Shown: positions 896 through 62,894 of the stretch, in pieces
How positions within the stretch are numbered: position 1 is the first letter of the stretch
How the letters are laid out: every line of letters begins with the position of its first letter
Source of the DNA: Octopus vulgaris
Taxonomy: Eukaryota
NCBI GenBank assembly: GCA_951406725.2
Contig: OX597814.1
Coordinates: 88,908,001-88,972,000 of the forward strand
Length of the DNA stretch: 64,000 bases
Direction: 5' to 3'
Translations under genes and position numbers: made by a program
Notes under the pieces: model-generated
Told to the model about the DNA's origin: nothing
Databases searched by the model: none
Seen by the model: only the letters and a program-made list of their open reading frames with translations

Positions 896-1032
896 TGTTG
901 CAGATTTGGTATCAATGATGTGGAAACTTTTGTACAATAACACAAATATACTTCCTGGAGAAAATACAAAAAATATGCAAATATTATTTGCTGTGATTGA
1001 TTTTATTGATCTAAATATCAATAATATGCAAG
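896..1032 (+). CDS. Exon 1 (module 1, type a, phase 2-1)
   Basis: tttcacAG|tgttgca ... caag|[51 protein letters not shown]. Confidence 0.8.

Positions 1033-62894: not shown

Follow-up and report, generated by a model that had tools for sequence, protein, structure and literature searches.

A stretch of 64,000 nucleotides of the Octopus vulgaris genome (contig OX597814.1, positions 88,908,001 to 88,972,000; hereafter the window) carries 28 short exons arranged as seven tandem four-exon modules, and the gene to which they belong is very probably an ABCA transporter with repeated tunnel-and-lid units. The array is likely an internal part of the first extracellular domain (ECD1) of a giant ABCA12-like octopod lipid exporter, the modules of which would hold lipid in a broad sense; this likelihood refers to ABCA identity together with the lipid-holding role in that broad sense, and it overlaps in part with the conduit reading discussed below. 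The gene would carry its transmembrane and ATPase parts outside the window, and the complete protein is possibly 9,000–11,000 residues long, as extrapolated from the molluscan layout and the Argonauta module count. Proteins of this kind are already public as uncharacterized or ABCA12-like entries; for the repeat itself, neither a Pfam model nor a published description was found.

Exon structure and splicing of the array

An earlier note, made from the letters of the window alone, had proposed 28 exons with a strict phase cycle and type-specific lengths. In a splice-site scan of the window, 25 of the 28 were found at strict thresholds and the remaining three (2a, 2d, and 4b) at relaxed ones. 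AG and GT flank every exon, the phase cycle 2-1, 1-0, 0-0, 0-2 runs through all seven modules, and the lengths are as proposed, namely 134–158 (a), 131–140 (b), 183–228 (c), and 197–233 nt (d). When the exons are joined, as the note had suggested, they give 4,956 nt, or 1,651 codons with zero stops, and the other two frames contain 167 and 149 stops. The modules, previously put at 221–246 aa, measure 220–245 aa with the slightly different cut of this analysis. The exact sequences of ten exon-containing ORFs of the window were sought in the protein collection, and none was found. The exons are as follows.

896..1032 (+), module 1 exon a, phase 2-1; strict splice-site scan
3915..4054 (+), module 1 exon b, phase 1-0; strict scan; b-motif alignment
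5810..5992 (+), module 1 exon c, phase 0-0; strict scan; cysteine pair
7668..7870 (+), module 1 exon d, phase 0-2; strict scan; d alignment
9054..9205 (+), module 2 exon a; relaxed scan; divergent subtype; outside the Argonauta match
12013..12143 (+), module 2 exon b; strict scan; b-motif alignment
15846..16073 (+), module 2 exon c; strict scan; cysteine pair; start of the Argonauta match
18108..18304 (+), module 2 exon d; relaxed scan; Argonauta match; phase-preserving alternative donor at 18322
21162..21295 (+), module 3 exon a; strict scan; Argonauta match
21506..21639 (+), module 3 exon b; strict scan; Argonauta match; covered as deeply as the spliced X3 contig
25105..25302 (+), module 3 exon c; strict scan; spliced X3 and X8 contigs
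27007..27224 (+), module 3 exon d; strict scan; spliced contigs
28178..28320 (+), module 4 exon a; strict scan; additive contig coordinates
29774..29910 (+), module 4 exon b; relaxed scan; additive contig coordinates
31781..31993 (+), module 4 exon c; strict scan; spliced contigs
34016..34242 (+), module 4 exon d; strict scan; spliced contigs
34764..34903 (+), module 5 exon a; strict scan; additive contig coordinates
35710..35843 (+), module 5 exon b; strict scan; additive contig coordinates
37734..37943 (+), module 5 exon c; strict scan; spliced contigs
39769..39989 (+), module 5 exon d; strict scan; spliced contigs
42996..43153 (+), module 6 exon a; strict scan; Argonauta match
47826..47959 (+), module 6 exon b; strict scan; Argonauta match
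48819..49031 (+), module 6 exon c; strict scan; cysteine pair; Argonauta match
50083..50315 (+), module 6 exon d; strict scan; Argonauta match
51853..52010 (+), module 7 exon a; strict scan; Argonauta match
59003..59139 (+), module 7 exon b; strict scan; Argonauta match
59530..59739 (+), module 7 exon c; strict scan; cysteine pair; Argonauta match
62662..62894 (+), module 7 exon d; strict scan; Argonauta match

The RNA test covered window positions 20600–40500, with 12 exons and 11 of the 27 junctions, and four runs were aligned. X3 and X8, which come from different studies, are putative RNA runs, the RNA label being a guess. Contigs of X3 and X8 join 3c/3d, 4c/4d, and 5c/5d directly (three of the 27 junctions), and six further junctions fit exactly additive contig coordinates, where 280 nt equals 4a plus 4b and 274 nt equals 5a plus 5b; 3a/3b and 3b/3c are not among the contig junctions listed for this interval, and the transcript confirmation called for earlier was obtained in part. 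The X3 contig of 6,470 nt and two X8 contigs are confined to exons, unlike the DNA run X18, which continues through introns, and X2 contributes short exonic pieces with no listed junction. If all window exons are included, the X3 contig reaches 1,345 nt 5' of exon 1a and 169 nt beyond exon 7d (62894), in agreement with the proposal that the array passes both edges of the window. The spliced X3 and X8 contigs stop at one shared transcript position, 169 nt past 62894; the contigs probably break off here because young, nearly identical modules follow, as they do in Argonauta, an alternative transcript end being the other possibility.

The window is AT-rich, with about 27–43% GC per 2 kb, and contains many microsatellites. 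The longest intron, 7a/7b (6,992 nt), owes its length to a broken non-LTR retrotransposon at 53000–56301 (+), which has a 754-codon frame with an RVT_1 match (E 2e-15); the piece downstream of this frame presumably resembles a restriction-like endonuclease, judged by its motif. Mariner-type transposase remnants lie in introns at 1225–2264 (+) and ~58207–58460 (−), with a Mos1 HTH_48 match at 1225–1677 (E 2e-14) and no Pfam match for the other mariner pieces. Very high-copy SINE-like intronic repeats occur at ~21900–23250, 30560–31320, 35870–36540, and 38530–40500, and the summed contig depth of the first two is in the millions.

Module similarity and repeat-bearing relatives

Similarity between the modules, on which the original proposal depended, is significant for the 15 pairs excluding module 2 (z 4.2–22.5; score reached by at most one of 200 shuffles) but weak for the six pairs including it (z −0.9 to 3.6), and module 2 differs in subtype from the remaining six. 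Recurring motifs had been described for exons b, c, and d. In exon c, both cysteines are conserved in every one of the seven modules, but the full L.DY..S.E..K motif of exon b is present in only three of seven, and neither exon b nor exon d has an invariant column.

The mean hydrophobic moment of the window protein is 0.265, compared with 0.204 ± 0.008 for shuffled sequences (reached by 0 of 500), and N-glycosylation sequons number 24 against 15.0 ± 3.5 expected (reached by 9 of 1,000 shuffles). No transmembrane segment was found in the window protein, which together with the sequon excess suggests an extracellular character, and the cysteine pair would form a disulfide in the lid. In the Pfam search proposed earlier, none of the 28 exon products scored above a family cut-off; 22 two-module stretches had no family in common, with any match in only one of the 22, and the precomputed domain record of the Argonauta protein is empty. 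Scattered weak Pfam matches on relatives were judged to be chance. The domain had earlier been left without a named family; the module is assigned below to the tunnel-and-lid unit of ABCA ECD1.

A profile of exon c matched 13 of 1.84 billion representatives, and a word-index search with this profile returned only one relative of 145 aa. The best match is a partial Argonauta hians protein (GAB1599091.1, 4,510 aa) with ~20 modules, some of them partial. Window residues 315–1644 are colinear with its residues 2–1290 at 44% identity, and modules 2–7 each have their own best Argonauta match at 39–53% identity. Further exon-c matches come from cuttlefish (partial proteins), from Owenia, and from a sea cucumber, the last being a fragment whose cluster includes a full 5,326-aa ABCA. 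A search with Argonauta residues 1–1500 retrieved only the protein itself among proteins of 2,480–7,893 aa. Neither the window nor any of the three cephalopod proteins found (Argonauta and two cuttlefish, all labeled partial) shows a TM1, transmembrane, or ATPase domain, and ABCA membership of the window gene is therefore something that we infer.

Several units without the cysteine exon lie in the near-identical part of the Argonauta array (P0002, ~2227–2650 and 2940–3110), resulting from either gene-model skipping or real exon loss. Two candidate relatives, P0008 and P0009, were rejected, as their short W..LC.N repeats are of another type and are unmatched by the module profile. A whole-protein alignment headed by a cuttlefish protein was also rejected, the cuttlefish protein being misaligned onto the ABC core.

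The core of the 5,326-aa sea cucumber ABCA was used as a query for large ABCA proteins, and the best 120 of 652 were taken. With a profile of the seven window modules alone, 19 of the 120 proteins were matched at an E-value of 2e-4 or lower, among them those of chiton (1e-83), oyster (3e-35), Littorina (8e-33), limpet, Lingula, Biomphalaria, Lineus, Ptychodera, and echinoderms. All 19 are lophotrochozoan or ambulacrarian, and the vertebrate, arthropod, and nematode proteins among the same best 120 of 652 gave zero matches. Every one of the 19 matches falls within ECD1 and precedes the first Walker A as well as, in proteins where it was identified, the GKxLYTP-type motif, and shuffled or reversed decoys of four proteins reached 5.4 bits at most. 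With an iterated profile of invertebrate sequences, for which the best of 246 decoys scored 13.2 bits, units at 15 bits or more number 23 in Lineus, 22 in chiton, 20 in Biomphalaria, 18 in Lingula, 16 in oysters, and 13 in sea cucumber. The module tiles ECD1 end to end, from about residue 60–90 to the base motif, and cysteine pairs spaced about every 230 aa across ECD1 give the same count independently of any model. Both pairs of transmembrane and nucleotide-binding domains are in the same chain of the full-length repeat-bearing relatives, and TM1 and the three-cysteine start of ECD1 are present in the repeat-bearing proteins of Owenia, chiton, oyster, and Lingula; in these invertebrate relatives the modules are placed between TM1 and the remainder of the transporter. 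The module-bearing Owenia protein starts with an ABCA N-terminus (E 3e-15 to human ABCA1), and it is this start that matches human ABCA1/4/7.

Further features were seen in some of these proteins. A lectin-like stretch lies inside the sea cucumber array by eye (P0016, ~610–720), and a C-type lectin domain (PF00059) is listed for three giant starfish ABCAs (P0049, P0051, and P0052). Furin-type dibasic sites stand just before the ECD1 base motif in P0016 (3486), P0059 (3509), P0051 (4308), P0055 (4288), and P0097 (3520), which comprise echinoderm and hemichordate proteins, one unnamed protein, and one frog protein, and also in the last module of the cephalopod models P0002 and P0003. These sites may reflect processing of the ectodomain.

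Link to the ABCA1/ABCA4 unit and evolution of the array

The window modules are too divergent for a direct match to ABCA1/4, and the link is transitive, via repeat profiles. Profiles built from the window alone did not significantly match catfish ABCA1, vertebrate ABCA12, or the terminal repeats in hhalign. When first and last units were left out, the profile of the 240 internal repeats matched catfish ABCA1 once (28.6 bits; best decoy 7.5), and in hhalign the internal repeats reached only 69–74% probability against this protein. Internal and terminal repeats match each other at 97% probability (E 9e-11), and terminal repeats of nine invertebrate sequences match human ABCA4 96–263 at E 1.8e-18 and human ABCA1 97–291 at E 3e-5. 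The stretch matched in ABCA1 lies between the annulus segments 69–80 and 363–379, at the tunnel base (PMC9381790). The 22-sequence internal-repeat profile listed no ABCA among PDB sequences at E 10, and all PDB sequences retrieved with the exon-c profile or the internal-repeat profile were chance matches.

Variant tables place ABCA4 introns at c.302, 442, 570, 768, and 858 (PMC7544654), and exons 4, 5, and 6 computed from these borders are 140, 128, and 198 nt long with phases 2-1, 1-0, and 0-0. Window exon types a, b, and c match these three exons, with the same phases and similar lengths, and ABCA4 intron 3 has the same phase as the module-opening intron of the window. When the alignments were followed by hand, the a/b, b/c, and c/d junctions landed on ABCA4 Gly148, Gln190|Phe191, and Val256|Leu257, where ABCA4 introns 4, 5, and 6 lie. 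ABCA4 exon 7 (0-0, 90 nt) is unlike exon d (0-2, 197–233 nt). The shared intron positions provide support independent of the profile chain, and through both, the window module is, on sequence grounds, homologous to the ABCA1/ABCA4 tunnel-and-lid unit.

Structure prediction added an outline of the module. The AlphaFold model of two Argonauta modules (22 sequences; mean pLDDT 70, pTM 0.44) is nearly all helix with a low-confidence linker, the model of the first Lingula repeat (11 sequences) has a pLDDT of 66, and the helix order around the cysteine pair appears the same in the internal-repeat and first-repeat models. Fold searches with both models retrieved generic helical bundles only (best Z 6.5 and 6.8; Foldseek E above 0.4), and ABCA chains were listed for neither model in these searches of low power. 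The fold search is uninformative, since the first-repeat model, from a family matching ABCA4 at E 1e-18, also retrieved no ABCA. The lid itself has poor density in cryo-EM maps and was modelled by homology (PMC8219669). In the ESM Atlas, exon 4c led to unnamed bacterial clusters with low recognition, and the cuttlefish module pair had no match. The ABCA1/4 tunnel is described as co-folded with ECD2 (PMC13161189), and therefore a lone module need not enclose lipid.

In a quick, midpoint-rooted tree of 42 cores, built without ABCA13, ABCA4, and ABCA7 rows and without the core of the window gene, the repeat-bearing ABCAs and vertebrate ABCA12 formed a 32-row group (SH-aLRT 98). Within it the repeat-bearing proteins broadly mirror the species tree, and the group is separate from ABCA1, 2, and 3. 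We take ABCA13 to be the sister of ABCA12.

The repeats were compared in a second quick tree of 88 cysteine-anchored units, comprising 15 of ~20 Argonauta units (those without a clean cysteine pair were left out) and units from the first 2,300–2,600 aa of the other proteins. Modules 3, 4, 6, and 7 each have a single Argonauta unit as their partner. The fifth-repeat subtype of other lophotrochozoans takes in modules 1 and 3–7 (SH-aLRT 98), and module 2 groups with the last Argonauta and cuttlefish units (95) and falls with the next subtype. The fifth-repeat subtype is present in one to three copies in the giant invertebrate ABCAs (first 2,300–2,600 aa), compared with six in the window and at least 14 in Argonauta, and the tree indicates that cephalopods expanded one repeat subtype. 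The array would have grown through the copying of four exons as one block; with a phase-2 intron at either end, such a block leaves the frame intact when duplicated. Symmetric exon blocks duplicate easily. The earlier description of a ~235-aa amphipathic helical domain from an old intragenic duplication agrees with the hydrophobic moment, the nearly all-helical Argonauta model, and the lophotrochozoan and ambulacrarian relatives. However, the duplication is not solely ancient, as near-identical young copies are present in Argonauta, cuttlefish, chiton, and oyster, and their presence in several lineages indicates that duplication continues.

Proposed role and comparison with known ABCA transporters

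In ABCA1, phospholipid is driven into the extracellular tunnel (PMC9381790); the lipid that ABCA12 loads into lamellar granules is glucosylceramide (PMC13161189). In the octopus protein, lipid exported with the energy of ATP would pass into a chain of at least 20 units, where the lid-capped amphipathic units would hold it as a built-in, membrane-anchored reservoir, and the array would be a tethered counterpart of the soluble acceptor needed by ABCA1. As both array ends are expected to join the domain base, the array would have to loop out and back, not extend as a one-way stalk. A more specific proposal is put forward tentatively: the tunnel-and-lid may be a self-contained, exon-bounded domain that was multiplied to a chain of 13–23 copies in an ancient bilaterian ABCA12-like transporter and expanded further in cephalopods, the chain serving as an ATP-fed extracellular lipid conduit or as a tethered lipoprotein that dispenses with a soluble acceptor such as apoA-I. 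A 2026 review (PMC13161189) describes the role of the lipid in the tunnel as unresolved even for ABCA1.

It is unlikely that the array of the same ABCA gene serves mainly as a long glycosylated spacer or tether that keeps the functional end off the membrane, or as a matrix binder, with lipid handled by the terminal units only. Copy numbers that vary from 13 to 23 or more between lineages, fast sequence evolution (39–53% identity between window and Argonauta), the sequon enrichment, the low-confidence linker between modeled modules, and a vertebrate ABCA12 that keeps a large domain with only the last unit detectable would all fit a spacer. However, every copy retains the cysteine pair and strong amphipathicity, and the order of at least repeats 1–5 is kept across phyla, although a neutral spacer would have no need of this.

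In ABCA1/4/7, the unit is one part of a hydrophobic tunnel ~60 Å high (PMC13161189; PMC9381790), and its copies fill the domain gap-free, as would be expected if docked modules of the same ABCA gene made a continuous hydrophobic channel through which lipid travels tens of nanometres to a remote acceptor, in the manner of an extracellular bridge fed by ATP. Such a channel is nevertheless improbable, as every unit ends in a lid, the two-module model contains no confident interface (pTM 0.44), and the annulus residues (PMC9381790) imply that both array ends must return to the base.

A stand-alone, possibly secreted, core-less ABCA offshoot, such as an apolipoprotein-like or mucus protein, is a highly doubtful identity for the cephalopod gene. 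All three cephalopod models are labeled partial, and each terminates where a module is complete, which is how a split gene model would look, and the Owenia gene is seemingly split likewise into N-terminal and C-terminal models. These points stand against the observations that the Argonauta and cuttlefish models have neither ABCA end and stop at the same module with a dibasic RxKR site, and that no cephalopod is present among the 120 listed large ABCA cores of 2,929–9,321 aa (best 120 of 652). The stop of two RNA contigs at one transcript position would also suit a core-less gene, but no poly(A) signal was seen by eye where the contigs would end if they entered the last intron, and near-identical Argonauta copies, which would break unitigs, start just after the module-7 counterpart. 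The open frame, the module similarity, the spliced contigs, and the homologs led us to reject a chance pattern or artefact.

For an ABCA transporter with repeated lipid-holding units, which we regard as the probable reading, the array accounts for the size of 5,000–7,400-residue transporters, which form a widespread class without annotation, and offers a likely ancestral plan of the ABCA12 ectodomain; a length of 9,000–11,000 residues would place the octopus protein among the largest ABC transporters. The repeats supply hundreds of natural sequences for the tunnel-and-lid unit and a small construct to express and solve, and the unit allows a direct test of lipid binding on its own. Were the array only a spacer, it would still represent a domain family missing so far and a clear instance of the duplication of a symmetric block of several exons. 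A literature search, with subscription journals and supplements mostly outside its scope, returned no description of a repeat array in invertebrate ABCA ectodomains.

ABCA2, ABCA12, and ABCA13 are described as having abnormally large extracellular domains of unexplored structure (PMC13161189). Vertebrate ABCA12 is the nearest vertebrate group to the repeat-bearing cores in the quick core tree and likewise has a very large ECD1 (PMC13161189), in which only the last unit matches the repeat profile in 14 aligned ABCA12 proteins of birds, reptiles, and amphibians (two overlapping of 16 windows, probability 63–91%). An amphibian-type ABCA12 of 6,549 aa (P0138) has its own cysteine pattern about every 570 aa at ~2220–3500, which is unmatched by the module profile and apparently represents a separate repeat expansion. 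The giant ABCAs of chiton (XP_064594630.1, 7,098 aa), Lineus (XP_064634814.1, 7,432 aa), and Lingula (XP_013420949.1, 6,258 aa) contain the same module as the window, and the giant invertebrate ABCAs are named "uncharacterized" or "ABCA12-like" in databases, with no repeat described. The cysteine pair is common to the ABCA4/ABCA1 unit and the window modules, whereas human ABCA4 and ABCA1 have one copy of the module, compared with at least seven in the window, ~20 in the partial Argonauta protein, and 13–23 in other invertebrates.
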